DNA of 64,000 nucleotides from Calditrichia bacterium (GTDB lineage Bacteria > Calditrichota > Calditrichia > RBG-13-44-9 > J075): assembly GCA_050633245.1 (NCBI GenBank), contig JBOEGD010000012.1, positions 8,746-72,745 on the forward strand. The letters run 5' to 3'. Positions 1,611 through 61,038 of this stretch are shown piece after piece. The position numbers were made by a program, and so were the translations under genes. The number at the start of each line of letters is the position of its first letter. Position 1 is the stretch's first letter. Under the pieces are notes generated by a model that worked only from the letters and a program-made list of their open reading frames with translations, had not been told where the DNA came from and did not search any database.

Positions 1611-1646
1611 AAAACGAAATAATCAAATCCATTACAGGGAATACAC

Positions 1647-2528: not shown

Positions 2529-2552
2529 GCAGGATACATTTGCAACAAAAAA

Positions 2553-2584
2553 GGGCGTTCGATTTTATCGAACGCCCTTTTTTT
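2553..2584. terminator. Bidirectional rho-independent terminator between convergent genes
   Basis: GGGCGTTCGA / TCGAACGCCC stem with 6-nt loop. An A-run precedes it (2545-2552) and T7 follows it (2578-2584), so it reads as hairpin plus U-tract on both strands. Confidence 0.75.
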
Positions 2585-2603
2585 ATCTAAAGATTTCAAA
2601 CTC

Positions 2604-20449: not shown

Positions 20450-20619
20450 GTGGCCTCCTGTTTTAAAGCATACAGGAGGAAAACTAAACAAAACATGGGC
20501 ATTGCGTCTAACAGTCTACGGACATCGTTTGACACCTTAGAGACACATTCCATGATTTTATCCGGTAGCTTCTCAATCGAGAAAAATTCCGTTGAATTTC
20601 AACCTCAGACCATTCATAT

Positions 20620-28200: not shown

Positions 28201-29793
28201 TTGGATAACAAAAAAGCAAAAATACCAGAGCTGCTGCAAGATAAAGGCGGGCTGAAAAGCGGCGTTTCCAGGGAAGTCTCCCGGGAAACCGGTGCTCCGG
28301 AGGCCATGATTTATGGCGTCGGCAGTTTTTTTCATCTTCTTTCAAACCCCGACACTAAGGTACGAGTGTGCACCGGCCTCTCCTGCCAACTTGCCGGCGC
28401 AAATAAGATTCTTGAGGCCGCCAAAGCCGCAGGTCTTCCGGTGGAAGGCTGTTCCTGCCTGGCCGCCTGTGATCAACCTCCGGTGGTTTTGCGCGATCGC
28501 GACGTGATAACGCAGATTCAGTTATCGGATATCGAACAGACGGGCGGCGATTGGAAACAGTTAAAGCCTGAAATTGCTTCTGGTGGCTACGCATGGTCCG
28601 GGGCCGTAGGTCCTGACCGGGACGATTCCGAAAAGCAGGTTTTCAACCTGCTCGGGCAACTCGACTGGTCCGGGGCAGCTCTTAAAAAAGCAAGTGCCAT
28701 GGATCCGGATGACGTAATTCAGCTAGTGGAAGACTCCGGGCTGCAGGGACGCGGGGGAGCGGGATTTCCGGCCCATATCAAATGGAGGGCGGTGCGGGAG
28801 CAACAAGAGCCGCAGCGCTATCTGGTATTGAACGCAGATGAAGGTGAACCCGGCACCTTTAAGGACGGCGAGATTATGATGCGCCGTCCGGATCTGATAA
28901 TCGAGGGGCTGGCAATAGCCGCTCGAACCGTAGGTGCAACAGACATTTATCTCTACCTGCGTGGCGAATTTACCTTTCCCAAAATAGCGATGGCGACAGC
29001 ATTGGAAAAATTCAGTGAGCAGGGGTTACTCGATGATCTGAATTTTCACTTTCACGATGGACAGGGAGCGTATATTTGCGGTGAGGAAACCGCGCTTCTG
29101 GAAGCCCTCGAAGGTAAACGGGGAATGCCCCGGTTGAAGCCCCCTTTTCCGGTAGAAAACGGACTGTGGGGCAAACCAACCCTGATTCACAATGTTGAAA
29201 CGATTGCCTGTGTGCCGCCGGTTATGCTGCACGGAGGAGAATGGTTTAAAGACCTTGGACGCACCGAGCCCGGGACGAAGCTGTATTGCATCAGCGGACA
29301 TGTGCAAAATCCCGGAACCTACGAATTACCACTTGGCGTAACGCTGGACGAGCTGGTTGCAGAAGCCGGTGGGTACGTCGGTACGCTAAAAGCCTTTTGT
29401 CCCGGTGGTGCCAGCTCCGGGTTTCTGCCGGCCACGATGAGCAACCTGCCACTCGATTTTAAAGGCTTGGCCAAGGTTGGTTCCATGCTCGGTTCCGCCG
29501 GAATTATTGTTCTCAACAATACGGTTAATATGAAGTGGGCGGCCGGACACCAACTGCGCTTTTTTGAAGACGAGAGTTGTGGCCAATGTGCCCCCTGCCG
29601 GATCGGCACCCGTTACCTGCGAGAGGCAATAGACGCCTCTATTGAAGGAACGGAAAGCCCCGACACACCGAACCTTGAAGTTGCAGACGAGGTAGCATGG
29701 CAAATGAATGAAGGTTCTATTTGCGGATTGGGGCAAATTGCCGCTCTACCGCTTACCACCGCCAGGAAATACTTCCCCGAGGATTTTATATGA
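28201..29793 (+). CDS. NAD(H)-binding formate dehydrogenase beta subunit: fused NuoE-like [2Fe-2S] plus NuoF-like FMN/[4Fe-4S] (FdsB/HoxF type)
   Basis: NuoE-type cysteines 'CTGLSC…GCSCLAAC'. NuoF motifs 'GRGGAGFP' (FMN) and 'ESCGQCAPCRIGT' ([4Fe-4S]). TTG start with AAAGGTG SD. Its stop overlaps the next start (ATGA at 29790-29793). Confidence 0.85.
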   Translation: MDNKKAKIPELLQDKGGLKSGVSREVSRETGAPEAMIYGVGSFFHLLSNPDTKVRVCTGLSCQLAGANKILEAAKAAGLPVEGCSCLAACDQPPVVLRDRDVITQIQLSDIEQTGGDWKQLKPEIASGGYAWSGAVGPDRDDSEKQVFNLLGQLDWSGAALKKASAMDPDDVIQLVEDSGLQGRGGAGFPAHIKWRAVREQQEPQRYLVLNADEGEPGTFKDGEIMMRRPDLIIEGLAIAARTVGATDIYLYLRGEFTFPKIAMATALEKFSEQGLLDDLNFHFHDGQGAYICGEETALLEALEGKRGMPRLKPPFPVENGLWGKPTLIHNVETIACVPPVMLHGGEWFKDLGRTEPGTKLYCISGHVQNPGTYELPLGVTLDELVAEAGGYVGTLKAFCPGGASSGFLPATMSNLPLDFKGLAKVGSMLGSAGIIVLNNTVNMKWAAGHQLRFFEDESCGQCAPCRIGTRYLREAIDASIEGTESPDTPNLEVADEVAWQMNEGSICGLGQIAALPLTTARKYFPEDFI

Positions 29794-32606
29794 AAAAAGA
29801 AAATATGCAGATGATCATAAACGGTAAAGCGATCTCCTTTACCGAAGGCGAAACTATCCTGAGTATCGCTGACCGAAATGGCTGGAAAATCCCCACACTT
29901 TGCCACGATCCGCGTCTGGACCCCGCAGGAGCCTGCCGCACCTGTCTGGTTGAAGTAGAGGGATCACGCCGACTGGTTCCCTCTTGCGCTCAAAAAGCAA
30001 CAGATGGCATGGTGGTAAGCACCGAAAGCCAACGTATAGACAGACATCGCAAGTCGCTGCTTGCTCTGTATATGACCGATCACCCGCACGATCGTGCACT
30101 TGCCGAAATAGGATCTCCAAATCAGCTGCTCGATATGGTTGAACAATTTCAGGCCCCCACCAGCTGGGGACAGATGGAATCGCAGCGCGATCACCGCGAT
30201 CACGATCATAATCCCTATATCCATTTTAATGCCGAAACCTGCATTGCCTGCGCCCGCTGTGTGCGCTATTGCGAGGAGATTGAAGCAGTCTCTGCCATTA
30301 CTTTGGCCAACCGGGGATCCAAAACAACCATCTCTACCGTTGATGATCTGTCGCTGCTGGAAACAACTTGCGAAAAGTGCGGCGGATGTATTGATGTCTG
30401 TCCCACCGGAGCAATGACGGAGAAACTACCGTTAACCCGGAGCGCAAAGCCGGAGCGCGAGCTACAAAAGGTCCGCTCCACCTGCAATTTTTGCGGCGTG
30501 GGCTGTCAACTCGATTTGAATGTTGACCCGACGGCAAACAATGGTAATGGGCAGATCGTTAAAGTGTCCAGTCCTCCTCCCGGCACCACTACAAACGACG
30601 GGAATCTCTGCGTAAAAGGACGTTTTGCTTACGACTTTATTCATCATAAAGACCGCCTTACCCAACCACTGATTCGCAGAGAAGATGGAGAATTGCACCC
30701 TGCCACCTGGGACGAGGCCCTACAAACGGCCGCAGACGGATTGCAACAGGTTGCAAAACGTCACGGCCCGGACGCGCTGGCGTTTGTCAGCTCTTCACGC
30801 TGCACGGTAGAAGAAAATTATCTGGTGCAAAAGCTGTCCCGGGGAGTCTTCCGCACCAACAATGTGCATCAATGCGCCGCCACATGACACGCTCCTACTG
30901 TGGCCGGTCTGGTCAACACGTTTGGAGCAGGTGCAATGACGAATTCAATTGGTGAGATTCGCGATGCAGATTTTCTTTTTGTTATCGGAAGCAATACCAG
31001 TGAAGCACATCCGATTATCGCGATGGAAATGAAGCAGGCGGTACGACGTGGTGCGACTCTTGTCGTAGCAGACCCTCGCGCAATCTGGATGACCTCCATC
31101 GCGGAGAAGCATATGCAGTTAAAACCGGGCACCGATGTCTGGCTGTTGAATGCCATGGCACACGTTATTGTTGACGAAGATCTGATCGATCATCAATTTA
31201 TCAATCAACAAACCGAAAACTTCGAGTCGGTGAAACAGGCGGTGGCAGCCTATACACCAGAGAAGGCGGAAGCCATTACCGGCGTATCAGCGGAGGATAT
31301 TCGCTGGACTGCCCGGCGTTATGCGACGACGGAAAAAGCGGGAATTTACTATACCCTGGGAATAACCGAGCACTCACACGGAACAGATAATGTGTATGCA
31401 CTGGCCAATCTGGTACTGATGACCGGTCATTTAGGGAAACCCTCTTCAGGTATGAACCCTCTTCGCGGACAAAACAATGTACAGGGGGCAAATGATGCCG
31501 GCGCCAGTCCTATTTTCTACCCGGGATATCAGCGCGTAGATGATCCTGAAGTTCATGCAAAATACGAAACATCCTGGGGCGTTCCTCTCTCCACCACACC
31601 AGGGCTTAATCTAAATGAGATGATGAAAGTAGCCGGGGAACGTATTAAGGCGTTCTTTATCATGGGCGAGGACATCGTTATTTCGGAGCCCAACGTGCTT
31701 CGCTTGGAAGCAGCACTCAATAATGTTGAATTTCTGATCCAGCAGGAACCCTTCTTAAATGAGACCTCTCGCTTCGCGGACGTCATTTTCCCCGCCTCAG
31801 TCTTCGCAGAAAAGGACGGTGTGTTCACAAATTCGGAACGACGGGTTCAGCGGGTACGCAAAGCAGTTAACCCACCGGGTGAGGCTCGTGTCGACTGGCA
31901 GATCCTCGCTCAACTGGCGAACAGCTGTGGTGCCGGGTGGAATTATCAAAGCCCGGCGGAAGTCTATGCCGAGATGGTGAAAGATGCTCCCAAGTTTGCC
32001 GGTATCAGTCATGAGCGCCTTGAAGAAACGCATCGGAACCCCGGCAAGAGCGGAATCCAGTGGCCCTGTCCAACTCCCGATCATCCCGGAACTGAATATC
32101 TTCACAGTAGCGGAGTGCTACGTGGTAAAGGTTTATTCCAAGCAGTTGAGTATTCTCCATCGGCAGAGCTGCCGGATGAAGAATATGGCCTGGTCCTGTC
32201 CACCGGAAGAACCCTATACCACTATAATGCTGCCACACAAACGCGACGGGAGTCTGGGCTGCATATGAAGCAATCGGAAGCCTTTATCGAAATCCATCCG
32301 CGCGATGCGAGAAAGCGCGGCGTGCAGCACAAGGACTTGGTGGAAGTGAAAACCCGTCGTGGCAGCGTAAACTTGCGGGCACTTTATTCGCGGCAGGTGC
32401 GCCCTGGCTGCATCTGGATGCCCATGCACTTTGCAGAGGCTCGGGCAAATGTCCTCACGAATGATGTAGGCGATAAGGTTACCGGAACCGCAGAGTATAA
32501 GGTCTGCGCAGCGGAGGTTAGACCTATTGAACGGGCTAAAGAAGGCGATACGCTTTTCCCAGGCGCCTATTTTCATGAAAACGGACCAGGCAATGGCAGA
32601 ACATAA
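29790..32606 (+). CDS. fdhA: Formate dehydrogenase alpha subunit (NuoG-like 2Fe-2S/4Fe-4S N-terminus plus Mo/W-bisPGD catalytic domain). One continuous gene with in-frame UGA at 30885-30887 read as selenocysteine; the ORF track shows it as two ORFs
   Basis: 29721..30887 and 30900..32606 are in the same frame and are separated only by TGA. The protein reads …NNVHQCAAT-U-HAPTVAGLVNTFG…, matching the conserved FDH active-site 'C.R.(U/C)HGPSVAGL'. Upstream are 2Fe-2S 'CRTCLVEV', 4Fe-4S 'CIACARCVRYC' and 'CEKCGGCIDVCP', and the MopB Fe4S4 motif 'CNFCGVGCQL'. Confidence 0.8.
30888..30928 (+). promoter_or_regulatory. Candidate bacterial SECIS element directing Sec insertion at UGA 30885
   Basis: Hand-folded hairpin GCUCC-UAC-UGUG-GCC-[GGUCU]-GGU-CAA-CACG-UUU-GGAGC. 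The apical loop GGUCU (30906-30910) lies about 20 nt after the UGA, as in E. coli fdhF (…UUGCAGGUCUGCACC…). Not computationally folded. Confidence 0.45.
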
Positions 32607-32857
32607 ACGGGCTCTTATCAATCGAAATTAAATTCCGGATTCTTCCGGGCTTCAAGTTAATGGGGTGACCATTCCGCACGATCTGTTCTATTTGCTTTTG
32701 TTGTCCCAAATTCTTACCATTTAATATACAATTTCCTATTCTTTCTCTGCACCACGATTTCTAACAGAATTTTCTACAGCCTACTAAAACTCGATTGTAA
32801 AGCGTACATCAAACAAGTTCGTAATTATTTTATAATAACCATCTCCTGGAGGTTACA

Positions 32858-33313
32858 ATGGTAAATTATACCCCGGAAACAAGAGGCAGCAAGAAAGAAC
32901 CAACCACAACAGACGTGTTGGCCAAGGACATCATGCTCAAGAGCTTTGTTCATTTGAAAGAGTCTCTGACAACCGCAGAAGCTGCGCAAACGCTGTTGGA
33001 TTACAAACTACCCGGTGCTCCGGTGGTTAATGAGCGGGAAGAGATTGTCGGGTTTCTTTCTGAGAAGGATTGCCTAAACCGAGTGATTAAATCGCGTTAT
33101 CTAAACACGCCATCTATTCCGATATCCGAATACATGTCCACCGAGCTGGTCACCGTTTCGCCAGACAGCAGTTTGTTTTTCGTCGTTGAACTCTTTACCA
33201 AACATCCATATCATTGCTATCCCGTGGTAGAGCACAATAAAGTTGTCGGTCTGATTTATCGTCATCATTGTTTAAAAGCAACGATGGAAACATATAGAAG
33301 GGGATTTGCGTAA
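32858..33313 (+). CDS. Tandem CBS-domain protein
   Basis: Two CBS-like segments (…AKDIMLKSFVHLKESLTTAEAAQTL… / …ISEYMSTELVTVSPDSSLFFVVELF…). Confidence 0.7.
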   Translation: MVNYTPETRGSKKEPTTTDVLAKDIMLKSFVHLKESLTTAEAAQTLLDYKLPGAPVVNEREEIVGFLSEKDCLNRVIKSRYLNTPSIPISEYMSTELVTVSPDSSLFFVVELFTKHPYHCYPVVEHNKVVGLIYRHHCLKATMETYRRGFA

Positions 33314-33359
33314 CAGGATAGCGGGAAAAATTCGACAGTATTTATAAAGGAACCTCAGC

Positions 33360-34829
33360 ATGAATTTTGTATTCTCGGGCTGCATAACAGCGCTTTTTAC
33401 ATTGACATCGCTCGCGTTCTCTCAAGGCAGCGGTAGGATAGACCTGAACAGCCTCGAGAATTATGCTAATCAGTCCCGACCATCTTATATCTTCAAAGAC
33501 AACACACCGGCAAACAACCCGATTACCGATGCAGGAGCCACCCTCGGGAGGGTTTTGTTCTACGATAAAAGGCTATCGGTAAACAATTCCGTATCATGTG
33601 CCGGCTGCCATCATCAACGGCATGCTTTTGGCGACCCCAATCAGGTCAGCACCGGTGTAAACGGTATAACAGGCCGCCATTCCATGCGGCTCATCAATAC
33701 GCGCTTCGCTAGAGAATGGCGCTTCTTCTGGGATGAGCGTGCCGCCTCACTGGAACAACAATCTACCATGCCGCTTCAGGATCACATTGAAATGGGATTT
33801 AGCGGAACAATGGGTGACCCGGAGCTCGACTCACTGTTAAACAAAATGTCGACACTGGATTATTATTCTGTCCTCTTTGACTTCGTATATGGAGACCCGG
33901 GAATATCCGAGGAACGTATACAACTGGCAATGGCCCAGTTTATTCGCAGCATAGAATCCTTCGACTCACGCTTCGACGAAGGGCTGACGCAAACCGGAAA
34001 CATGCGCGTTAATTTTCCAAACTTCACTGAATCCGAGAATGATGGCAAGTTGCTGTTTTTGAACTTTCCGTTTTTTAATAATGACGGAGAGCGTGTTGCA
34101 GGCGGTGCAGGCTGCGCCTTTTGTCACAATCCGCCGGAGTTCAACATAAGAGCGGGTTCCGGAAATAACGGCTTTACACGCAAAATCGGCGGCGGCAAAG
34201 ATTTCAGTATTACCCGTTCCCCTACACTGCGCGATATCGCAGCTGCAAACGGGGACTTACACGGTGGACTTATGCATACGGGAGACAGGAATACCTTACA
34301 AGAAACGATCGATCATTATGATGATATCCTTATCGAGACAGGCAATTTTCGAATCGACCCGGTGTTGGTAGTTGGAGGCCGCGGCTGGCGCCTCAGGCTA
34401 ACACCGGGTGAGCGAATTGCCTTGGAAGATTTCATAAAAACACTGACTGGCTCGAACGTTTACACCGATCTTAAATGGTCGGATCCATTTGATGCAAACG
34501 GCGATTTGGAAATTACTCCACCTTCAACCACAGGCACTGAGCCACAGGCCCCTGCCGATGCCCTTACCTTTGAGCTTGCGCAAAACTATCCAAACCCATT
34601 CAATCCGTCCACTACTATTTCCTATCGTATCGGCCAGTCCAGCCGGGTAAACCTTAGCGTTTATAATATTCTGGGAATGGAAATCACCACACTGGTGAAT
34701 AAATTTCAGGAAGCTGGGAGGTATGATATTCCGTTTAACGCAGAGAATTTACCGGCAGGTGTATATTTTTATCGCCTGACAGCAGACAGACAGCCGGTTG
34801 AAACCCGTAAAATGCTGCTAAGTAAGTAG
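33360..34829 (+). CDS. Di-haem cytochrome c peroxidase (CCP/MauG family) with T9SS C-terminal domain – paralog 1
   Basis: 'LFYDKRLSVNNSVSCAGCHH' is the CCP N-terminal haem site and 'GCAFCHNPPEF' the second CxxCH. C-terminus 'LAQNYPNPFNPSTTISYRI…GVYFYRLTA…RKMLLSK'. Signal peptide present. Confidence 0.85.
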   Translation: MNFVFSGCITALFTLTSLAFSQGSGRIDLNSLENYANQSRPSYIFKDNTPANNPITDAGATLGRVLFYDKRLSVNNSVSCAGCHHQRHAFGDPNQVSTGVNGITGRHSMRLINTRFAREWRFFWDERAASLEQQSTMPLQDHIEMGFSGTMGDPELDSLLNKMSTLDYYSVLFDFVYGDPGISEERIQLAMAQFIRSIESFDSRFDEGLTQTGNMRVNFPNFTESENDGKLLFLNFPFFNNDGERVAGGAGCAFCHNPPEFNIRAGSGNNGFTRKIGGGKDFSITRSPTLRDIAAANGDLHGGLMHTGDRNTLQETIDHYDDILIETGNFRIDPVLVVGGRGWRLRLTPGERIALEDFIKTLTGSNVYTDLKWSDPFDANGDLEITPPSTTGTEPQAPADALTFELAQNYPNPFNPSTTISYRIGQSSRVNLSVYNILGMEITTLVNKFQEAGRYDIPFNAENLPAGVYFYRLTADRQPVETRKMLLSK

Positions 34830-34946
34830 AGACCCGACTGGAAGGCACTGGCTCGCCGGCATGCACCCCTGTCAACGAGCTGGTAGCGTTACTGAAAAAG
34901 CAGTAGGTTATTATTGTAGGCATGACACGAAGAAAGGAATTTCAGA

Positions 34947-36419
34947 TTGAATTTTGCACGCTTGAAGTATATCCCGACAGCATTAGTAGTGCTTACATCG
35001 CTCGCCTTCTCTCAAGGCAGCGGTACCATCGACCTGAACAGTCTCGAGAATTACGCTGATCAGCCCCGCCCATCCTATATTTTAAAAGACAACACTCCGG
35101 CAACCAATCCGCTTACCGATGCCGGAGCAACCCTCGGCAGAGTATTATTTTATGATAAGAGGCTCTCGGTAAACAATTCCGTTAGCTGTGCCAGTTGCCA
35201 CCATCAACAATTTGCTTTTGGTGATCCTGACCAGGTGAGCACAGGCGTAAATGGCATTACCGCCCGCCATTCAATGCGACTCATCAATACACGTTTTGCC
35301 GAAGAAAAAAAATTCTTTTGGGATGAACGTGCCGCTTCGCTGGAAGAACAAACATCGATGCCGCTTCAGGATCATATCGAGATGGGATTTAGCGGAACGA
35401 TGGGTGATCCAGAGCTCGATTCGCTGCTAAATAAAATGTCTGCACTGGAATACTATTCGATTCTCTTCAAATTTGTATATGGAGACGCAGCCATATCCGA
35501 GGCACGCATACAGCTGGCAATGGCTCAGTTTATTCGCAGTATAGAGTCTTTTGACTCACGCTTCGATGCCGGACTGACACAAACTGGCGACATAGACGCG
35601 TATTTCCCGAACTTCACTAAGGCTCAGAACTCCGGAAAACAGCTGTTTCTGGGAACACCGGTATTTAATAATGATGGCGAGCGTATTGCGGGAGGCGCCG
35701 GATGTGCATTATGCCATACTCCTCCGGAGTTCGACATTAAACCAGGCTCCGGGAATAACGGCTTTACTCGTAAACTTGGCGGTGGAAATGATTTTAATAT
35801 TACCCGTGCTCCCACCCTGCGCGACGTTGTCAAATTCAACGGCGCTTCGAACGGTGGACTCATGCATACGGGTGGCATGTTCAGCATAATCCATGTGATC
35901 GACCATTATGATAAGATTGAGATCGTGGAGGGCAACGAACAAATCGACTCGGTACTGGTGAGAAGCGGCAGGGGTTGGAACCTCCTGCTCTCTACTCAAG
36001 AGGTTAGAGATCTGTTCAGATTTATTGCAACACTGGGCGGTACAAATGTTTATTTCAACCCCAAGTGGTCCAATCCATTCGACGCAAACGGCGATTTGGA
36101 AGTGATTCCACCAACCACCACAGGCATTGAGCCTCAGGCTCCTGCTGATGCACTGACTTTTGAGCTGATGCAGAACTATCCCAACCCATTCAATCCATCG
36201 ACGACGATCTCCTACCGAGTCAGTCAATCCAGCCGGGTAAACCTAACCGTCTATAACATTTTGGGAAAGGCAATTGCCACACCGGTAAATGGATTTCAGG
36301 AAGCGGGGCGCTACAGCATTTCGTTCAACGCGGCTGATTTAACAGCCGGAATTTATTTTTATCGTTTAACTGCGGACGGCCAGCAGGTCGCAACCCGAAA
36401 AATGCTGCTGAGTAAGTAA
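34947..36419 (+). CDS. Di-haem cytochrome c peroxidase (CCP/MauG family) with T9SS C-terminal domain – paralog 2 (tandem duplicate)
   Basis: Same architecture ('SCASCHHQQFAFGD', 'GCALCHTPPEF', '…NYPNPFNPSTTISYRV…RKMLLSK'). Judged by eye at about 75-80% identity to paralog 1 at both DNA and protein level. Confidence 0.85.
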   Translation: MNFARLKYIPTALVVLTSLAFSQGSGTIDLNSLENYADQPRPSYILKDNTPATNPLTDAGATLGRVLFYDKRLSVNNSVSCASCHHQQFAFGDPDQVSTGVNGITARHSMRLINTRFAEEKKFFWDERAASLEEQTSMPLQDHIEMGFSGTMGDPELDSLLNKMSALEYYSILFKFVYGDAAISEARIQLAMAQFIRSIESFDSRFDAGLTQTGDIDAYFPNFTKAQNSGKQLFLGTPVFNNDGERIAGGAGCALCHTPPEFDIKPGSGNNGFTRKLGGGNDFNITRAPTLRDVVKFNGASNGGLMHTGGMFSIIHVIDHYDKIEIVEGNEQIDSVLVRSGRGWNLLLSTQEVRDLFRFIATLGGTNVYFNPKWSNPFDANGDLEVIPPTTTGIEPQAPADALTFELMQNYPNPFNPSTTISYRVSQSSRVNLTVYNILGKAIATPVNGFQEAGRYSISFNAADLTAGIYFYRLTADGQQVATRKMLLSK

Positions 36420-36491
36420 AGAATGCTCCTTTAATTGCTCAACAGCATCTAAACCGAGTCGGTAAATCAACTTGTTTTTAGCGGAAGTGCA

Positions 36492-38069
36492 CTAGACACT
36501 TCCCAAGGCGATGTAAATACCAATGGTTACGGCAACTAGACCTATTCCAAACCCTCTCGCATACTTCCACTGCGTCATGTCTACCACGCCAACATCCTGT
36601 ATTTTAAATACTTCTTTGGGAGGATAAAAATATGATGCAATGTGCATTGCTACGACATTTAGCACAAACTCGATGCCCCAGATATGTACAAAATGCAGAT
36701 CAACTTTCAGAATAAAGTAAGTGGTTATATAAAAGGCAAACCCAAACAGTAAGCCAACCTTTGCGCCGGTAGCCGAAACTTTTGGGAAAAAGAATCCAGC
36801 CAGTATTACGGTAGCCATTGGAATAAAAAAGATGCCGTTAAGTTCTTGTAGCAGCTGATACAAGCCTTCCGGAGCATCAGCAACTAAGGGTGCAACAGCA
36901 ATAGAGACAACAGCAAGGATAAGAGACACCGTTTTCCCCATCCACACCTGCTGCTTTTCACTGGCATCCGTATTTAGATAGCGTTTGTAAACCCCGAGAC
37001 TAAAAATAGTTGCCGCACTGTTTAACCCACTGTTAAACGTACTCAAAACAGCCCCCATTACCACCGCGACAAAAAAACCTGTCATCCAGTAAGGCAATAC
37101 TTTGTTTACCAATAGCGGGTAAATAGTATCCTGCTCATTATACAGTGAATCTCCAAAGTGATAATAGGCGATAAGTCCGGGCAGGATAATAACAATGGGA
37201 ATAAGGATTTTCAAAATACCGGCATATAGTAAGCCTTTTTGCGCCTCAACTAAACTTTTTGCCCCGAGGACGCGCTGAATGATTGACTGATGCATGCACC
37301 AGAAATAGAGCTGATTCACAATCAATCCTGTAAATAGCACTTCAAAAGGTAGTATAGAATCTCGTGCTCCAATAACGTTAAACTTGGAAGGCTCATATTC
37401 AAACACCTTTACCAAACCAGAGGCAATGTTTCCATCTCCAATGCTCCAAAGGGCCAAAACAGGTATCAAAACTCCGGCTATCAGCAATCCATAACCATTA
37501 ACCGTGTCTGTATAGGCAACCATTTTTAATCCACCAAATATGGCATAAATCGATCCGACGACCCCAATAGCAATAACTGTAATCCACATTCCCGTTCCTT
37601 GAGACACTCCCAGCATTTCAGAAATATTGAAGATGCTTTCGATATTAATCGCACCGGTGTACAGCACAATTGGCAGAAGTGTCGTAACAAAGGAAATAAT
37701 TAACAATAAGGCGATCATTGTTCTGGTCATACCATCAAACCGATGTTCCAGGAACTCCGGTATTGTGGTTAGTCCCATCTTCAGATACCGAGGCACAAAA
37801 TACAGTGCCGCCGCCACCAACGCGACCGCCGATGTTACTTCCCACGCGATGATTATGGCACCAAAACGATAGGAAGACCCATTCATGCCGATTAAATGTT
37901 CGGTAGAGATATTGGTTAACAACATCGATCCGGCAATCACAACGCCGGTTAAACTTCGCCCCCCTAAGAAATATCCATCTTTGGAATCCAGATTGTCTTT
38001 TCTAAGACGATAGGCCGAATAAATTGCTACAAACGCAGTAAACCCCAGAAAGCTCAAAAATTGAATCAT
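36492..38069 (-). CDS. Sodium:solute symporter (SSF) family transporter
   Basis: About 13 TM helices; SSF-like segments (…GGRSLTGVVIAGSMLLTNISTEHLIGMNG…). Confidence 0.85.
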   Translation of the reverse strand: MIQFLSFLGFTAFVAIYSAYRLRKDNLDSKDGYFLGGRSLTGVVIAGSMLLTNISTEHLIGMNGSSYRFGAIIIAWEVTSAVALVAAALYFVPRYLKMGLTTIPEFLEHRFDGMTRTMIALLLIISFVTTLLPIVLYTGAINIESIFNISEMLGVSQGTGMWITVIAIGVVGSIYAIFGGLKMVAYTDTVNGYGLLIAGVLIPVLALWSIGDGNIASGLVKVFEYEPSKFNVIGARDSILPFEVLFTGLIVNQLYFWCMHQSIIQRVLGAKSLVEAQKGLLYAGILKILIPIVIILPGLIAYYHFGDSLYNEQDTIYPLLVNKVLPYWMTGFFVAVVMGAVLSTFNSGLNSAATIFSLGVYKRYLNTDASEKQQVWMGKTVSLILAVVSIAVAPLVADAPEGLYQLLQELNGIFFIPMATVILAGFFFPKVSATGAKVGLLFGFAFYITTYFILKVDLHFVHIWGIEFVLNVVAMHIASYFYPPKEVFKIQDVGVVDMTQWKYARGFGIGLVAVTIGIYIALGSV

Positions 38070-38465
38070 AACTGCACCGCCGACATTTTGTTATTCTTAC
38101 GCTCGTTGGTCTGAGAGTGGTTCAGCAGGTCTGCGAAGCACTGCCATTTAATGATCGAGCCTATTATAAATACGCGAATGAATCGACATAAAAAAGGGGC
38201 AGAGTGAATAGAACCCAATTTTGCATTGTTCGAATTAATAAGTATACTTATTTCAAATGGCCTGTTGAAAGACCAATACAGGTTGCCAAATCAACAGCCC
38301 GGCCCCTGACTCAGACTTTAATTAGTTCGCTCGTATATAAAGCAAATAGATAATGCAGGACTCAACGTCAGACAAAACAGCTTGAACCTGCCTTCCTGTT
38401 AAGAATTGATTTTACAACGCGCTCAACTACTTATTCTTTGTGACCAAATTAAGGAGGTCCAACAA

Positions 38466-41186
38466 ATGCAAGCTAATCAACCGTATTCAAGGGCAGCAAA
38501 ACTCTATCAAATTCTAATTGTGACTTTTGCTTTTTGCTTTGTGCTCTCAACACACCTTCAAAGCCAGGAGACGTTTGGAAATATTGATGGAAGAATTACA
38601 GATGGTGATGGCAAGGCTTTAACTGGTGCAAACGTGATTCTACAAGGAGCAAATAAGGGCACCGCAACGGATTTAAATGGACGCTATAATATAAACCGGG
38701 TTACTGCAGGGTCTTATACCTTGGAAGTTTCTTACATTGGCTATCAGACACAGACGGTTGAAATTAGCATCAGCGACGGACAGACTACAACCCAAGACAT
38801 TCAGCTGAGCGCTGCGATTTTTGATGTGAGTGAAGAGGTCGTTTGGGGAATTCGTGCAAAAGGACAAGCTGCTGCACTTACCAGACAAAAAAATGCTGCA
38901 AATATTGTAAACATTGTTGCTGCTGACCAGATGGGACGCTTTCCCGATGGTAATGCCTCTGAAGCTGTTCAGCGCGTACCGGGCGTCGCTCTGGAGCGAG
39001 ATCAGGGTGAGGGGCGCTATATTCAAATTCGAGGCGGCTCTGCACTAATGTCTTCCATTACCTTTAATGGCGAGAGAATCCCTTCACCGGAAGATAGCAG
39101 GCAGATCGCACTTGATGCTGTGCCGGTAGACATTCTGGAATCGATTGAAGTAGCGAAAGCAATTACACCGGACATGGATGCCGATGCAATCGGAGGTAGT
39201 GTAAATCTTGTTACGAAGAAGGCGCCATTTGAGAGACTCGTAAACCTTGAGTTAGCCGGCGGATACAATGCCATACGCGAAAACGGCGGCGGGAGTGGCA
39301 ATATCACATTGGGCACCCGAACGGCAAATGATAAAATCGGCATTCTTGCAAATGCCAGCTGGAATCGACGCAGTCTCGGCTCAGACAATGTGGAACCGGA
39401 GTATGATCTGGGAGACCCTGGTTTAGGTGATGACGTTCTGAGCGAACTGCAAACGCGACTCTATGATATCGATCGAACCCGAGTTGGCCTGAATACAATG
39501 CTGGATTTCCGCCATAGCAATCAGTCTTCAAATTTTCTAAATATCATTTATTCTCAAAGTAAGGACGAGCAATTACGCCGAAAGTTTGTAAATGCAGATT
39601 TTGATGATGGCGATGTATTGGAACTGGAAGATAACTGGAGAACCGAAGACCTTAGTACATTAAACCTGTCTGGCGGCGGAGATCATAATCTGAACAATGG
39701 GATGGCTATTAACTATAATGTCACCTATGTAAAATCCAGAGAAGAGAAACCAGACATTCAGGAAATCGTATGGGTTCAGGAAGGCCTGACCAGCTTTAGC
39801 CCATCCATCGCAGATCCCGAAAACATAACTGCTAATCCGGGATCTGTATCGGGTGAGTATGAATTCGACAAAATCGAAACGGAAACAAGCGAAATCAATA
39901 ATGAAGACGTCGTTGCTGCACTCAGCTTCAGCCTTCCTCTGAACATCGGAAGCACAGACGGGAAGCTTACATTTGGCGGTAAATTCAGAACCAAAACAAA
40001 AGACCAACAAGTTGAAGTAATGGAATATGGGCTTGTCGCTGGTGATGCAATTTTGGGAGATGGATTTGGCGAAGACTTCAGCCTGGATGGATTTAACCCG
40101 GGCAATTACCCCTTTCCGGGAACTGTTACTAATGTCGACGATTTGCAAAACATCGTCAGTTCATTTTCGTCCCGCTTTGGAGAATTGGAAAGCGAAAAAG
40201 ATATCGAAGCCGATGCTGAAGATTATGAAGTGAAAGAACGTGTTGTCGCCGGGTTTGGCATGATTGAGTTGAATGTATCTGAAAAGTTTACTTTGATTCC
40301 CGGTGTTCGTTTTGAACAAACCAATGACGAAACTCAGGGTTTCGAGTTCGACAGCGAGCTGGAAACAACCGTTGCCTCACCCGTTGCGGAAGAGTCATAC
40401 GGCAATTTTTTTCCTATGATGCATCTGCGCTATCGCGCGACACCCTATACGAATGTTAGAGCCGCTTATACTTCTGCTATTGCCAGACCCAATTTTTACG
40501 ATCTTGTCCCCTATCGAATTCGTGATGATGAAGATTTATTTATCGGAAATGCTGAATTATCACCAACAACTTCTGCCAATTTAGATCTGCTTGTAGAACA
40601 CTACAATCAATCGATTGGCGTTCTTTCGGGCGGCATATTTTACAAACGGCTTACCGACCCCATTTTTGTTTTCGTAGAAGACAACACATTAGGTGGCGAT
40701 ACAAATCAGCCACGCAATGGAGAATCCGGCAATATATTTGGTGCTGAATTAGCCATTCAGCAACAGTTAAGATTTCTTCCCGGAGCTCTCAATGGACTGG
40801 GATTCTATGGAAACTTCACCTATGTGGATTCTAAATTGACGTTGCCCGATGGACGTGAGGTTAAACTCCCGGGACAGGCAAATAATATTCTCAACCTTGC
40901 ACTAAACTATGAAAAGTCGGGCTTTTTTGCGCAAACAAGTGTGAGTTATCATGGCGACTATCTAATGGAAGTGGGTGGCAGCGAGGAAGAAGATTTGTTT
41001 ATCGACAAACATCTGCAGATTGATGCCTCAGCAAGCTATCAATTGTCGGAGACTTTCAATGTTTTCCTTGAACTCGTTAATCTTAACAATGAGCGATTTA
41101 AAGTATTTGAAGGGGTCAGCGAACGCCCGCGACAGCTTGAGTATTATGAAACCTCAGGCCGGTTGGGACTAAGGTTCAATCTGTAA
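38466..41186 (+). CDS. TonB-dependent outer-membrane receptor (CarboxypepD_reg plus Plug plus beta-barrel)
   Basis: Signal peptide. CarbopepD_reg_2-like 'GANVILQGANKGTATDLNGRYNINRVTAGSYTLEVSYIGYQ'. Plug region 'IQIRGG'. Terminal aromatic 'LGLRFNL'. Start 38466 is preceded by AAGGAGG; the longest ORF starts at 38406. Confidence 0.85.
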   Translation: MQANQPYSRAAKLYQILIVTFAFCFVLSTHLQSQETFGNIDGRITDGDGKALTGANVILQGANKGTATDLNGRYNINRVTAGSYTLEVSYIGYQTQTVEISISDGQTTTQDIQLSAAIFDVSEEVVWGIRAKGQAAALTRQKNAANIVNIVAADQMGRFPDGNASEAVQRVPGVALERDQGEGRYIQIRGGSALMSSITFNGERIPSPEDSRQIALDAVPVDILESIEVAKAITPDMDADAIGGSVNLVTKKAPFERLVNLELAGGYNAIRENGGGSGNITLGTRTANDKIGILANASWNRRSLGSDNVEPEYDLGDPGLGDDVLSELQTRLYDIDRTRVGLNTMLDFRHSNQSSNFLNIIYSQSKDEQLRRKFVNADFDDGDVLELEDNWRTEDLSTLNLSGGGDHNLNNGMAINYNVTYVKSREEKPDIQEIVWVQEGLTSFSPSIADPENITANPGSVSGEYEFDKIETETSEINNEDVVAALSFSLPLNIGSTDGKLTFGGKFRTKTKDQQVEVMEYGLVAGDAILGDGFGEDFSLDGFNPGNYPFPGTVTNVDDLQNIVSSFSSRFGELESEKDIEADAEDYEVKERVVAGFGMIELNVSEKFTLIPGVRFEQTNDETQGFEFDSELETTVASPVAEESYGNFFPMMHLRYRATPYTNVRAAYTSAIARPNFYDLVPYRIRDDEDLFIGNAELSPTTSANLDLLVEHYNQSIGVLSGGIFYKRLTDPIFVFVEDNTLGGDTNQPRNGESGNIFGAELAIQQQLRFLPGALNGLGFYGNFTYVDSKLTLPDGREVKLPGQANNILNLALNYEKSGFFAQTSVSYHGDYLMEVGGSEEEDLFIDKHLQIDASASYQLSETFNVFLELVNLNNERFKVFEGVSERPRQLEYYETSGRLGLRFNL

Positions 41187-41329
41187 GCGATTAGCTGGTT
41201 CGCAGTTAATAACAGTCTTATGCAGTTCTTCTTTGCCACACTTATTGGCAAAGAAGAACGATTCAATATGTTTATGACAATAGACAATGTTTAAGTGCTT
41301 CAACGCTACTTCTCTATGCAAGGAAAGAA

Positions 41330-42415
41330 ATGAATAAGCCTTTGAAACTGGCAGTGCTCGGAGTGGGTAGAATGGGTTTTATTCATGCACGCCACGTTCA
41401 GGAACTGGCCGAGAAGACCAATACCTGTCAACTGGTTGCTGTAGCTGACACAGATAGAGACTTCTCCGCCAAAACAGCCCATAAGCTCCAGCAACATCAG
41501 AATACAAAAATTTACTCCTATGCGAGTGCTACGGAACTGGCAATTAGCAATAGTATAGATGCTGCAGTTATTGCTTCTCCCACTGTAAATCACTATCAAG
41601 ATACCAAAATACTTGTTGATGCAGGCTATCGCGTGCTTTTAGAAAAACCGCTCACTGCTTCACTTCAAGATGCGAAAGAACTTACAGGCTATTTAGACTC
41701 CAGTCAGAAGGCCAGTACTTCTGTGATGCTGGCTTTTATGAGGCGATTTGACGAGCCATTAATGCTGGCAAAAAAACTATTGGACTCCGGCAAAATTGGC
41801 CGTCCGTTTAAATACTCGTCTATTTTGGAAGATCCGCTTCCACCACCGGAAGGTTATATCAGCCCGGGGCTTTTGCTGGATATGGCAATTCATAATATTG
41901 ATGAAATTCTCTGGCTGCATGGAGACAAACCGGAACGTGCGATTGCTTTCGGCTCAAACCTCTATAGCCATGGAGAAAGTGATGTTGAGGAAGATTTTGA
42001 TGATGCAATGCTGCAATTATGGTTTCCGGGTAATGTGCTCGGGCAGATTCAGGTAAGCAGAAATCACGTCGCGGGCTATCGTGCCGAAACGTGGATTTAC
42101 GGTGAGCAAGGTATGATTCACGTTGGACATTTTCAGGATGACCCACATGCCATTTCCGTGAACTCTTATAGTCGTGACAATCAGGTGATTGAGAAAAAGA
42201 TATTCATGCAGCGAAAGTATGAGGAGGACGTTCCGGTTTTTGCAACCCGGTTCGGCAATTCCTATAAATCCGAACTGACTCATTTTGTCGATCAATGTCA
42301 TACCAACTCTCCATTTTCCGTGACACATATAGATGGATTTCTCGCACAACAGGTTGCTTTCGCGAGTCAACGCACGGTAAAAGGCGCAGATGGCGCGAAT
42401 CTCATTAGATACTAA
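41330..42415 (+). CDS. Gfo/Idh/MocA-family NAD(P)-dependent oxidoreductase
   Basis: N-terminal Rossmann 'LKLAVLGVGRMGFIHARH', 'EKPLTAS' and a C-terminal GFO_IDH_MocA_C-like half. Confidence 0.85.
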   Translation: MNKPLKLAVLGVGRMGFIHARHVQELAEKTNTCQLVAVADTDRDFSAKTAHKLQQHQNTKIYSYASATELAISNSIDAAVIASPTVNHYQDTKILVDAGYRVLLEKPLTASLQDAKELTGYLDSSQKASTSVMLAFMRRFDEPLMLAKKLLDSGKIGRPFKYSSILEDPLPPPEGYISPGLLLDMAIHNIDEILWLHGDKPERAIAFGSNLYSHGESDVEEDFDDAMLQLWFPGNVLGQIQVSRNHVAGYRAETWIYGEQGMIHVGHFQDDPHAISVNSYSRDNQVIEKKIFMQRKYEEDVPVFATRFGNSYKSELTHFVDQCHTNSPFSVTHIDGFLAQQVAFASQRTVKGADGANLIRY

Positions 42416-42735
42416 CTAAAGATGTTGCCGAACGAACTTCGATTATAGGTTTCAATCAACACCTGTCTTTTTGAGAAAAAAATTCTTTTCCTATTGATTG
42501 TCTTGGTAGAACAAGATAATTTAAGACAAAAGAGTCTTTATTCTTAAACAGAGGCACCAATGACACACTCAGGTCGGGAATAGATAAAAATGATCATAAA
42601 GAATGTTGATTTTTCTTTCCAGTTGAGGAAGTCAACATTCCTTTTCGGACAGTAGCAAGATTAACAATCGCCGGAAGCAACTGCTACGCCCCAAACCTGT
42701 ATGGAAGCAATAAACAGACGTATAATGGAGGCAAC

Positions 42736-43968
42736 ATGAAGCACCTCAAGTTATTAGCCATAGCATTTTTATGTGTAACGCCACTTTTCGTTTGGGCGGA
42801 TGGAGATGAGGAAAATAAAGACTGGAAGTTAATTGCACAAATCCGCCAGCGCTCGGAAGTCGATAATCGGGATTTTAACAGCGATACCGGGCTCGAATCG
42901 TTCACCGGTCTGCGGTCCCGTCTGGGTGTACTGTTCACACCGGCCGAGGACCTGAGTGCCTTTTTTCAAGTGCAGGATACGCGATTCTTCGGAACGGAAA
43001 CCAGCACGCTCTTCGACGGTAGGGCAGATAATTTCGACCTGCGCCAGGCCTACTTCCACCTTAAGGATCTCTTTAGCTGGCCGGTAGATATTAAAATGGG
43101 TCGTATGGAAGTAAACTATGGGCCCCAGCGCTTGATCGGCGCGGTTGGATGGCATCCAATTGGACGCAGCTTCGATGGAGGAATACTCACCATCAAAGGG
43201 GACGGGAAATCTCTCGATATTTTTTCCTTTAAAGAAGTGGAAGAATTTGAAATTGAAGACAAAGGCGATCGCAGTGTAGGCGGAGCTTACGGAAATATAA
43301 ATGTCGGGGACAGCCATAAGGTGCAGCCATTTATTATCTGGCAGATCAGCACGCCGGATTCGATCATCAATCGCTTCACTACCGGATTTTATGTCAATGG
43401 AAAGCCCGGCAACTTTCGCCATGAGCTTGAGTTCGCCTATCAGGGTGGTTCAGTGGGCGATCTGGACGTAGCAGCCTACATGTTTGCAGCTAACTTCGGC
43501 TACGTATTCTCAGATGTATCAACAAAACCCATGGTTTCCATCGGCGTTGATTATCTAAGCGGTGACGATACCTTGGGGGATAATGACATCAAGTTCTTTG
43601 ACACCCTGTATGGCACCAACCACAAATATTACGGTTTCATGGATTACTTTCTAAACATTCCGGTCAATACCTTTGGCCGTGGATTGATGGATCTGCATCT
43701 AAGGTCTTCCATAAATATTAACAAAAGCACCAAGCTTGCCTTAGCGCTGCACAACTTTTCTTCCACTGAAGACTTTGTGGGAACCGGCGGCGAGACCGAA
43801 ACCGCGTTCGGAAAGGAAATCGACCTCACACTGACGCATAAGTACAACTCTCAGCTTGGCATAACCATCGGTGCATCCATATTCTCACCGGGTGAGATCT
43901 TTAAACAAGAGCGCGGTGAAGATCTGTCCAGCTGGTATTACCTGATGACAACAGTTAATTTGAAGTAA
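42736..43968 (+). CDS. Outer-membrane porin-like beta-barrel (alginate-export / AlgE-like family)
   Basis: Signal peptide. Alternating beta-strand pattern; 'LRQAYFHLKD…MGRMEVNYGPQRLIGAVGW' resembles the alginate-export domain. Ends in aromatic-rich strands. Confidence 0.55.
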   Translation: MKHLKLLAIAFLCVTPLFVWADGDEENKDWKLIAQIRQRSEVDNRDFNSDTGLESFTGLRSRLGVLFTPAEDLSAFFQVQDTRFFGTETSTLFDGRADNFDLRQAYFHLKDLFSWPVDIKMGRMEVNYGPQRLIGAVGWHPIGRSFDGGILTIKGDGKSLDIFSFKEVEEFEIEDKGDRSVGGAYGNINVGDSHKVQPFIIWQISTPDSIINRFTTGFYVNGKPGNFRHELEFAYQGGSVGDLDVAAYMFAANFGYVFSDVSTKPMVSIGVDYLSGDDTLGDNDIKFFDTLYGTNHKYYGFMDYFLNIPVNTFGRGLMDLHLRSSININKSTKLALALHNFSSTEDFVGTGGETETAFGKEIDLTLTHKYNSQLGITIGASIFSPGEIFKQERGEDLSSWYYLMTTVNLK

Positions 43969-60999: not shown

Positions 61000-61038
61000 A
61001 ATCCTCTCCTTTCCATCGCCTTTTGGCAACGGATATTG

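Follow-up and report, generated by a model that had tools for sequence, protein, structure and literature searches.

Two adjacent genes in a 64,000-nucleotide (nt) stretch of DNA from a Calditrichia bacterium (GenBank assembly GCA_050633245.1, contig JBOEGD010000012.1, positions 8,746 to 72,745 of the forward strand; the whole stretch is called the window below) each encode a protein in which a di-haem core of the cytochrome c peroxidase (CCP) and MauG family is joined to a type IX secretion system (T9SS) C-terminal sorting domain (CTD). This combination raised the question of what reaction such an enzyme carries out and on which side of the outer membrane it does so. Judged by their sequences, both copies are MauG-type (His-Tyr) enzymes but not orthologues of MbnH or MauG. 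Whether they act outside the periplasm, as oxidants that use H2O2 to reach a high-valent state at the cell surface, we consider an evenly balanced proposition, and it is the best of the explanations weighed here.

The gene pair and its haem core

An earlier reading of the same DNA (the original prediction) had described adjacent paralogues of 489 and 490 amino acids (aa), about 75 to 80% identical by eye. The open reading frames (ORFs) bear this out, as BLASTP aligned the two proteins over their full length with one gap and 371 of 490 residues identical (76%). Copy 1 has a database counterpart of 100% identity, entered as 'MAG: cytochrome c peroxidase [Calditrichia bacterium]', and copy 2 is identical to database protein P0003, which lies on the same 226-kb contig as copy 1. 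The features of the pair are listed below.

33360..34829, plus strand: copy 1, 489-aa predicted MauG-type di-haem enzyme with T9SS type A CTD (ORF with ATG start; Pfam and NCBIfam matches)
33360..33422, plus strand: copy 1, predicted Sec signal peptide, MNFVFSGCITALFTLTSLAFS followed by QGSG (by inspection: hydrophobic core, then A-F-S)
33597..33611, plus strand: copy 1, haem 1 motif CAGCH, aa 80-84 (aligns with MauG C31/C34/H35; 5-coordinate peroxide-binding haem by homology)
33726..33797, plus strand: copy 1, FWDER...QQSTMP...HIEMG, with putative inter-haem Trp124 and distal Gln134/Pro138/Glu144 (alignment to MauG)
34113..34127, plus strand: copy 1, haem 2 motif CAFCH, aa 252-256 (predicted 6-coordinate electron-transfer haem)
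34317..34319, plus strand: copy 1, Tyr320 (DHYD), predicted axial ligand of haem 2 (aligns with MauG Tyr294)
34587..34826, plus strand: copy 1, T9SS type A CTD, aa 410-489 (PF18962, TIGR04183, modelled beta-sandwich)
34830..34946, plus strand: intergenic spacer of 117 nt (sequence)
34947..36419, plus strand: copy 2, 490-aa paralogue (ORF with TTG start; Pfam and NCBIfam matches)
35187..35201, plus strand: copy 2, haem 1 motif CASCH, aa 81-85
35703..35717, plus strand: copy 2, haem 2 motif CALCH, aa 253-257
35907..35909, plus strand: copy 2, Tyr321, predicted axial ligand of haem 2 (alignment)
36177..36416, plus strand: copy 2, T9SS type A CTD, aa 411-490 (PF18962, TIGR04183)

The haem motifs quoted in the original prediction are present, with the haem 1 regions of the pair reading LSVNNSVSCAGCHH / LSVNNSVSCASCHH and the haem 2 regions GCAFCHNPPEF / GCALCHTPPEF. 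In profile searches with the two models that it had named, both copies scored above the gathering thresholds, for Pfam CCP_MauG (PF03150) with E values of 1.4e-39 and 1.6e-39 (136.6 and 136.4 bits versus 25.6) and for Por_Secre_tail (PF18962) with 36.5 bits for copy 1 and 42.5 bits for copy 2 (versus 27). NCBIfam TIGR04183, the T9SS type A sorting domain, gave 37.9 and 44.5 bits, respectively, at a cut-off of 23. Since these matches span profile positions 2-71 and 2-73 of 75, the CTDs of both copies are complete, as had been claimed; they stop 4 to 6 residues short of the C terminus, and the C-terminal domain of approximately 80 aa ends in K-M-L-L-S-K. A profile match was also obtained to the 75-residue chain 8glk_D, labelled 'Endonuclease I', and the CTD yields weak FlgD_ig matches in Pfam.

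At the other end of the protein, a hydrophobic N terminus ending in LAFS before QG was seen by inspection in both copies and their orthologues, the cleavage site being placed in the same way rather than with a dedicated predictor. In the AlphaFold model of copy 1, aa 2-19 form a low-confidence N-terminal helix, the helical di-haem core extends to about aa 385, and a low-confidence or disordered linker (aa 390-411) leads to a separate beta-sandwich (aa 417-487); the segment preceding the CTD (aa 386-409) is rich in Pro and Thr. A lipoprotein reading of copy 1 through 'VFSGC' (aa 4-8) was rejected, because the Cys lies too near the N terminus to follow an h-region.

The enzyme class was then approached through structures and curated families. 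The best sequence match in the PDB was 6e1c (E 8e-22 with a single sequence and 2.8e-41 with the family profile A1), which was also the top fold match (Foldseek E 6e-15, TM-score 0.69 on the target); the entry, entitled 'MauG-like protein associated with microbial copper homeostasis', is MbnH. Foldseek returned a probability of 1.00 for 44 CCP, MauG and MbnH chains with the AlphaFold model (predicted local distance difference test score [pLDDT] of 74). Among NCBIfam models, that of MbnH ranked first and that of MauG second for both copies, each far below its equivalog cut-off (TIGR04039, 133.1 and 138.4 bits versus 362.85; TIGR03791, 87.2 and 99.9 bits versus 443.85). No methylamine dehydrogenase gene or mau operon was recognised near the pair among the window ORFs searched with Pfam.

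The decisive position is the sixth ligand of haem 2. The Tyr of a D-H-Y-D motif (Y320 in copy 1 and Y321 in copy 2) aligns with MauG Tyr294 in 'AILFY294NK' and, in the profile alignment, with the Tyr of MbnH 'IDIYSE'. The same column holds the Met of 'ETMGRIQLN' in 1iqc from Nitrosomonas and of 'NTMADIQLG' in 3o5c from Shewanella, which we take to be the axial ligand of these two proteins. The MauG chain numbering in this alignment correctly places C31, C34, H35 and N66, and the Y294H variant of MauG (3orv) scores 24.2 bits, versus 28.0 for the wild type. Further hallmarks are in register: Trp124 aligns with MauG Trp93, and Gln134, Pro138 and Glu144 align with Gln103, Pro107 and Glu113, at the same spacings from the Trp (+10, +14 and +20) as in MauG. 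Entries for the MauG variants P107V, Q103N and E113Q are among the structure matches.

These residues are conserved well beyond the pair. Trp124, Gln134, Pro138, Glu144 and both CxxCH motifs are invariant in the 30-sequence alignment A1, so the haem motifs and distal ligands are intact rather than degenerate. In a set of 84 representatives that reaches down to about 31% identity, no exception occurs at the Tyr, at either CxxCH motif or at Glu144, whereas the Met of 'LMH' does vary. Among the best 120 database hits, two CxxCH motifs were counted in 118, and 115 carry HY where the spacing predicts it.

Ligation of the E haem by His-Tyr as opposed to His-Met separates MauG-type enzymes from canonical bacterial CCPs (bCCPs) (PMC11892367, 2025), and it is by this criterion, through the invariant Tyr, that we assign both copies to the MauG type. 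The enzymes of this type, MauG, MbnH and BthA, are poor dye peroxidases and form an Fe(IV)Fe(IV)=O state with H2O2 (PMC11892367). The pair shares its fold, two CxxCH motifs, inter-haem Trp and distal Glu with canonical bCCPs (1IQC, 3O5C and 1EB7); the latter have Met where the pair has Tyr, and they are periplasmic enzymes fed by cytochrome c or cupredoxins, whereas the pair carries a T9SS CTD. A canonical periplasmic CCP is ruled out by the Tyr, which is found opposite the Met of 1iqc and 3o5c in 84 of 84 representatives, and the 'canonical CCP' haem sites of the original prediction had to be given up on the same ground. That the chemistry is also MauG-type rather than canonical we hold to be moderately probable.

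Outward-targeting signals in the family

This genome is no exception in having the architecture. Both Pfam domains are present in nearly all of the best 120 hits (after clustering at 90%), whose sources are Calditrichia, Latescibacteria, Gemmatimonadetes and many Bacteroidota. A search with just the core as query gave 9627 representative clusters at E <= 1e-3 and 663 at E <= 1e-30, and at least 598 species-representative genomes proved on scanning to encode relatives. Thousands of relatives are already in databases, under generic names.

What follows the core varies. Por_Secre_tail is present in 34 of the 84 full-length representatives, and others bear He_PIG, Big_2, TSP3, RTX repeats, a sulfatase or a MopE-type copper-binding motif, the last of these fused in two representatives. 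Three representatives have weak RoxA-like matches; RoxA, a rubber oxygenase, is a secreted member of the CCP superfamily and a precedent for one located outside the cell. On a rough neighbour-joining tree of the core, with CTD calls from a local hidden Markov model, the CTD trait is clustered (18 parsimony steps versus a mean of 27.9 and a minimum of 20 after shuffling). At the same time, forms with a different C-terminal extension, or with no extension, are scattered among the CTD forms, so the T9SS-CCP fusions do not make up one clade, a point that the original prediction had raised for checking.

A second kind of targeting signal occurs on the same core. The member from Saprospira grandis (DSM 2844) is a CTD form, whereas the Flavobacterium and Chryseobacterium members lack a CTD and have a lipoprotein signal peptide instead, with C-SKNDDANEY, C-NSEDDNYEN and C-SGDDVYEG at and after the lipoprotein Cys. 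Judged by eye, these acidic stretches resemble the published export signal of Bacteroidota surface lipoproteins, which is C-X-K-(D/E)2 in Capnocytophaga and SDDFE in F. johnsoniae (PMC5080379). Among 289 full-length members, in which lipoboxes were called with a home-made regular expression, 162 have a CTD without a lipobox, 51 have a lipobox without a CTD, 74 have neither and 2 were scored with both; these two look like false lipobox calls. The two signals are mutually exclusive (Fisher's exact test, p = 1.3e-19). Of the indirect arguments for a site of action outside the periplasm, the strongest is that two mutually exclusive outward-targeting devices share one core, and the family looks outward-targeted by alternative routes.

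A third arrangement was noticed in Verrucomicrobia (Oceaniferula and Haloferula), whose members carry an unrelated C-terminal extension of about 75 aa behind the core. At 2977-4359 of L020 (Oceaniferula spumae) and 2941-4296 of L025 (Haloferula sargassicola), a signal peptide and the core are followed by this beta-rich extension, which matches nothing in Pfam, is no T9SS CTD and could be another kind of module for sorting or anchoring.

Evidence for CTD-dependent export was also sought in the window itself. At least seven other window proteins have C-terminal tails of the Por_Secre_tail or FlgD_ig type, including S15 peptidase, BNR/sortilin, PKD/FG-GAP and HYDIN-like Ig proteins, which implies that a large part of what the organism secretes bears the tail. 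They are encoded at the following positions.

1647-2528: CTD-type protein
6896-9025, minus strand: CTD-type protein
11625-14243: CTD-type protein
15644-18310, minus strand: CTD-type protein
18332-20491, minus strand: CTD-type protein
55623-59735, minus strand: CTD-type protein
59782-61029, minus strand: CTD-type protein

TIGR04183 has been reported in the FCB superphylum (Fibrobacteres, Chlorobi and Bacteroidetes), Calditrichaeota included (PMC5317091), and the T9SS and CTD proteins have been placed across that superphylum (PMC12398890); a search for Calditrichaeota together with type IX secretion returned nothing relevant in the literature searched. Cargo of the T9SS reaches its folded state in the periplasm, ahead of export (PMC5445135), an order of events that fits haem attachment in that compartment.

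Like known type A cargo (gingipains, Flavobacterium glycoside hydrolases and peptidases), the pair combines a Sec signal peptide with a C-terminal beta-sandwich of about 80 aa. Known cargo consists mostly of hydrolases and adhesins, whereas the pair are c-type haem enzymes, and no description of a CCP/MauG enzyme or of any c-type cytochrome as T9SS cargo was found in the literature. With an intact di-haem core and a scoring type A CTD, export across the outer membrane is the natural prediction, and we consider it likely that the pair is exported rather than periplasmic. The original prediction had also foreseen covalent anchoring to the cell surface. That part does not follow from a type A CTD alone, and release into the medium is equally possible.

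Candidate reactions and their rivals

Taken together, the core and the targeting signals suggest the following course of events. The unfolded precursor would be exported by Sec, and in the periplasm the cytochrome c maturation system would attach two haems at the CxxCH motifs as the protein folds. The type A CTD would then direct the folded holo-enzyme through the T9SS translocon and be removed, leaving the enzyme anchored to the surface or released. Outside, H2O2 would bind the 5-coordinate haem 1, with Gln134, Pro138 and Glu144 on the distal side; the two oxidising equivalents would be shared between the haems via Trp124, and ligation of haem 2 by His256 and Tyr320 would stabilise a bis-Fe(IV)-type state able to oxidise an external substrate docked near haem 2. 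H2O2 would thus be used as an oxidant and not merely removed. The most likely substrate would be located at the cell surface and be either a side chain of a protein or some other donor, macromolecular or redox-active; whether it is a protein or other macromolecule rather than a small reductant is, in our judgement, close to a toss-up.

MauG makes the tryptophan tryptophylquinone of methylamine dehydrogenase via bis-Fe(IV), and its Tyr294, Trp93, Gln103, Pro107 and Glu113 (3L4M; TIGR03791) all have aligned invariant counterparts in the pair with identical spacing. MauG is periplasmic and the pair is predicted to be exported; the pair also differs in having no mau operon and no counterpart of MauG Trp199.

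Several observations weigh against the proposal of an exported bis-Fe(IV) oxidant. Ligation of haem 2 by Tyr rests on alignment, the AlphaFold model containing no haem; this model is moderate overall, and its pLDDT falls below 50 around W124. MauG Trp199, which we take to be the hole-hopping Trp, lacks a counterpart in this family 2 residues ahead of the second CxxCH, the sequence there being GGAGC. The position of MauG N66 is occupied by His107, within a 'GRHSMRLxNxRF' motif. BthA combines His-Tyr with catalytic H2O2 reduction (PMC6405878), so the Tyr is compatible with a detoxifying role. No conserved neighbour was found for the CTD forms across nine genomic contexts, although MauG-type maturases normally adjoin their substrate gene; the adjoining genes encode MarR, a sigma factor, CBS, SNF2/AraC, glycosyltransferases and housekeeping functions. 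No T9SS machinery (SprA/Sov, PorV, PorU and GldKLMN) was recognised in the window with Pfam and NCBIfam, and experimental demonstrations of CTD-dependent secretion were found for Bacteroidota only.

The family-specific sequence G/A-R-H-S-M-R (33672-33689 and 35262-35279) replaces the 'G-x-R-N-x-P-T' loop of bCCPs, MauG and MbnH, whose Asn is presumably a Ca2+ ligand. As this Asn is replaced by a His that is nearly invariant in the family, the inter-haem Ca2+ site may be altered or absent. BthA lacks the Ca site (PMC11892367).

A further gene was noticed about 5 kb from a CTD-form member: at 12356-13467 of L006 on the minus strand, a VCPO_2nd vanadium chloroperoxidase-like protein has a weak Por_Secre_tail match and is thus another H2O2-using enzyme predicted to be exported.

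Of the rival explanations, a scavenger of H2O2 survives best. Such an enzyme would remove peroxide at the surface or outside the cell at the expense of small reductants (Fe(II), reduced humics, phenolics or thiols), and so shield a microaerobic or anaerobic cell from peroxide that has yet to cross the outer membrane. In its favour, the pocket that binds peroxide is intact, the gene has no dedicated partner in the nine contexts, and one CTD-form relative has a MarR regulator gene 10 nt upstream. BthA (6NX0; Burkholderia) offers a parallel, being a His-Tyr di-haem protein that forms a stable bis-Fe(IV) state and reduces H2O2 catalytically; for BthA, as for the pair, neither a protein substrate nor a linked partner gene is known (PMC6405878). 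The likeness is limited, as BthA matches the family very weakly in sequence (E 1.4e-7 over about 35 residues) and lacks the inter-haem Trp (PMC11892367) that is invariant in the family; the paper presenting its sequence similarity network does not mention Bacteroidetes or secretion (PMC6405878). Against a scavenger, MauG-type enzymes are generally poor in dye-linked peroxidase activity (PMC11892367). The replacement of Met by Tyr in 84 of 84 representatives argues for selection on a low-potential high-valent state rather than on fast electron delivery. In addition, the cytochrome c and cupredoxin donors of bCCPs are periplasmic and would be unavailable outside. The original prediction had offered both extracellular detoxification and MauG-like chemistry on a surface substrate; the residues fit the latter better, and we regard the scavenger and its protective role as rather unlikely, although it comes closest to the preferred reading.

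The next rival is a specific sub-case of the exported oxidant, namely a maturase that, like MbnH, would act by oxidation on a metal-binding partner, secreted or on the surface (a YHYH or MbnP-like protein), changing a Trp or some other residue so that a copper site arises outside the cell. MbnH, a periplasmic enzyme, is the closest characterised relative of the pair. The two share the N-terminal region 'P.YI...NP...LGR.LFYDK.LS....SC..CH', the Tyr at the haem 2 ligand position and a C-terminal 'SDPF/W' motif. Their identity is only about 26 to 27%; MbnH (6E1C; TIGR04039) has no CTD and has RN, with the Asn of the Ca site, where the pair has a CTD and His. MbnH acts on its partner MbnP, in which it installs kynurenine at a Trp (PMC11951088), whereas no mbnP adjoins the pair among the window ORFs.

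Genomic context links a minority of the family to YHYH proteins and to copper or metal handling, in two gene orders. The link was found in 8 of 80 loci, all eight of them with lipoprotein forms, and 7 of the 8 lie beside copper- or metal-handling genes. Six of these loci, from Flavobacterium and Chryseobacterium, have a partial MbnP-like ORF, a YHYH ORF and the family lipoprotein in that order, and are listed here.

L063: MbnP-like, YHYH and family genes
L024: MbnP-like, YHYH and family genes
L039: MbnP-like, YHYH and family genes
L057: MbnP-like, YHYH and family genes
L069: MbnP-like, YHYH and family genes
L086: MbnP-like, YHYH and family genes

Pfam confirmed MbnP (PF20243) in L024 and a YHYH domain (PF14240) with a T9SS CTD in L024 and L063. 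In L063 (Chryseobacterium formosus, 1-4059), the sole locus of this group in which the intervening ORFs were read, MbnP is followed by an MbnH-like di-haem protein, a YHYH protein with a T9SS CTD and the family lipoprotein. The MbnH-like gene of this locus is broken up into two ORFs that overlap (334-744 and 702-1403), suggestive of a frameshift or of an error in sequencing. The second order is that of L046 (1931-6855), from a Ferruginibacter metagenome-assembled genome, in which Metal_resist (CpxP-like), the family lipoprotein, a YHYH lipoprotein, an unknown protein and an SCO1/SenC copper chaperone are encoded; another Chitinophagaceae locus has a YHYH gene nearby.

Besides these two gene orders and the two MopE-type fusions, SACCP (MCA2590) of Methylococcus capsulatus speaks for a copper maturase. 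It is a CCP-family haem protein found on the cell surface, with its gene co-transcribed with that of MopE (PMC3912023), and it sets a precedent for the surface location of a CCP-family protein. SACCP and CorB, both of the CCP/MauG family, are co-transcribed with the kynurenine-containing copper proteins MopE and CorA, respectively; likened to the pair by description only, they differ from it in belonging to Proteobacteria, in having no T9SS and in being always linked to MopE or CorA. Against this rival, the link is confined to the lipoprotein forms of the 8 loci, and neither a YHYH nor an MbnP gene occurs in the window or in the nine CTD-form contexts. The MbnP of L063 already adjoins an MbnH-like gene of its own, the 133 to 138 bits of the pair are far under the MbnH equivalog cut-off of 363, and no relevant literature on YHYH proteins (PF14240) was found. 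Thus, the copper maturase is unlikely, and a YHYH- or copper-related substrate for the Calditrichia copies in particular is just as improbable.

If the enzyme were periplasmic and its C-terminal beta-sandwich had no role as an export signal in this phylum, serving instead for adhesion or as an Ig-like module or persisting as a remnant, this would account for the lack of a T9SS machinery gene in the 64-kb window, for the weak FlgD_ig matches of the tail and for experimental demonstrations being confined to Bacteroidota in the literature consulted. This rival is most improbable, given that both tails exceed the curated cut-offs of two independent T9SS CTD models and that the same tail occurs on the seven or more other window proteins, peptidases and BNR/PKD proteins among them. 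Moreover, the CTD and the lipoprotein signal, its alternative, exclude one another, and the T9SS and its CTD proteins extend across the FCB superphylum (PMC12398890; PMC5317091).

Fe(III) reduction has been connected with MacA, a CCP-family protein from Geobacter whose structures appear in the list of fold matches, and the pair are c-type di-haem proteins predicted to lie outside the cell, but an electron-transfer cytochrome working to or from extracellular minerals with no peroxide role can be set aside as hardly credible, as the Gln, Pro and Glu of the peroxide pocket, not needed for simple electron transfer, are invariant and no multihaem conduit or porin-cytochrome genes were seen nearby among the window ORFs.

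Age and surroundings of the pair

The original prediction had seen in the two copies a recent tandem duplication that hinted at selection. The paralogues have a dS of about 1.3, near saturation, with third-position identity of 40 to 65%, and the pair is kept in L005, a contig from another metagenome, so the duplication is old and maintained. Both copies are under purifying selection (dN/dS 0.13 between paralogues and 0.11 between orthologues), and a recent duplication under positive selection was therefore rejected. Paralogue identity is lowest, at 50 to 57%, in aa 281-380 of the haem 2 domain, after the Tyr. In MauG and bCCPs, this domain faces the substrate or electron donor, and with the divergence greatest there, the two paralogues probably serve different substrates or partners.

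In L005, the order of genes is that of the window (CBS, CCP-489, CCP-490, SSF symporter and TonB receptor), and its two proteins share 96% identity with copy 1 and 88% with copy 2. The more distantly related contig L002 has one copy in the syntenic position, in the order DPPIV, CBS, SNF2, CCP, AraC and amine oxidase. Copy 2 orthologues in both contigs also use a TTG start. The neighbour shared with both contigs is the following.

32858..33313, plus strand: CBS-pair protein, 46 nt upstream of copy 1 (Pfam CBS; syntenic in L005 and L002)

It may be a regulator and is only a candidate member of the system. An AAAGGAA motif resembling a Shine-Dalgarno sequence stands 9 nt before both start codons of the pair, and a sequence scan found no terminator-like site in the 117-nt spacer; co-transcription of the two copies may be inferred. 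The scan for promoters and terminators around the pair was uninformative, with promoter-like sites at the shuffled expectation.

Over 32690-41543 of the window, L005 is about 89% identical overall, with the copy 1 gene at 93 to 97% (dS 0.16) and the copy 2 gene at 83 to 88% (dS 0.59), a contrast that could stem from a boundary of recombination or from constraint that differs strongly between the paralogues. Relative to L002, the window has an extra block of about 8 kb (36492-43968) ahead of the AraC gene at 44390, which encodes the SSF symporter, a TonB-dependent receptor with CarboxypepD_reg, a GFO/IDH/MocA oxidoreductase and an alginate-export porin; in L002, genes for AraC, amine oxidase and GNAT come straight after that for the CCP. 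Upstream, the ORFs 29721..30887 and 30900..32606 (plus strand) are in the same frame and joined by a TGA codon at 30885-30887 inside 'HQCAAT-U-HAPTVAGL'. The joined product (29721-32606), an FdhA-like molybdopterin oxidoreductase preceded by a NuoF-like subunit at 28201..29793, is probably a selenocysteine formate dehydrogenase, and in L002 this block is missing from the interval that separates DPPIV from CBS.

Descriptions of MauG-type enzymes come from few periplasmic systems (MauG, MbnH and BthA), where they have been studied for bis-Fe(IV) chemistry and long-range protein oxidation. From sequence comparison, we identified a separate putative subfamily that has the MauG hallmark residues and systematically bears outward-targeting signals. 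In its widest form, the proposal would be that an FCB-wide family of MauG-type bis-Fe(IV) enzymes leaves the cell along routes that can replace one another (the CTD of the T9SS, the signal of surface lipoproteins or further secretion modules) and builds extracellular metal or redox sites by oxidising residues in YHYH or MbnP-like proteins that are secreted or on the surface; in this form we consider it doubtful. If it were true, the T9SS would export a folded, haem-loaded c-type cytochrome, and protein-derived cofactors would be made beyond the outer membrane. The question is testable in cultured carriers, such as Saprospira grandis DSM 2844 and members of Flavobacterium and Chryseobacterium. 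Should localisation and chemistry hold, the cargo range of the T9SS would widen to holo c-type cytochromes, thousands of proteins now automatically named 'cytochrome c peroxidase' or 'T9SS type A sorting domain-containing protein' could be given a function, and the family would provide a tractable case of peroxide-driven oxidation on the bacterial surface.

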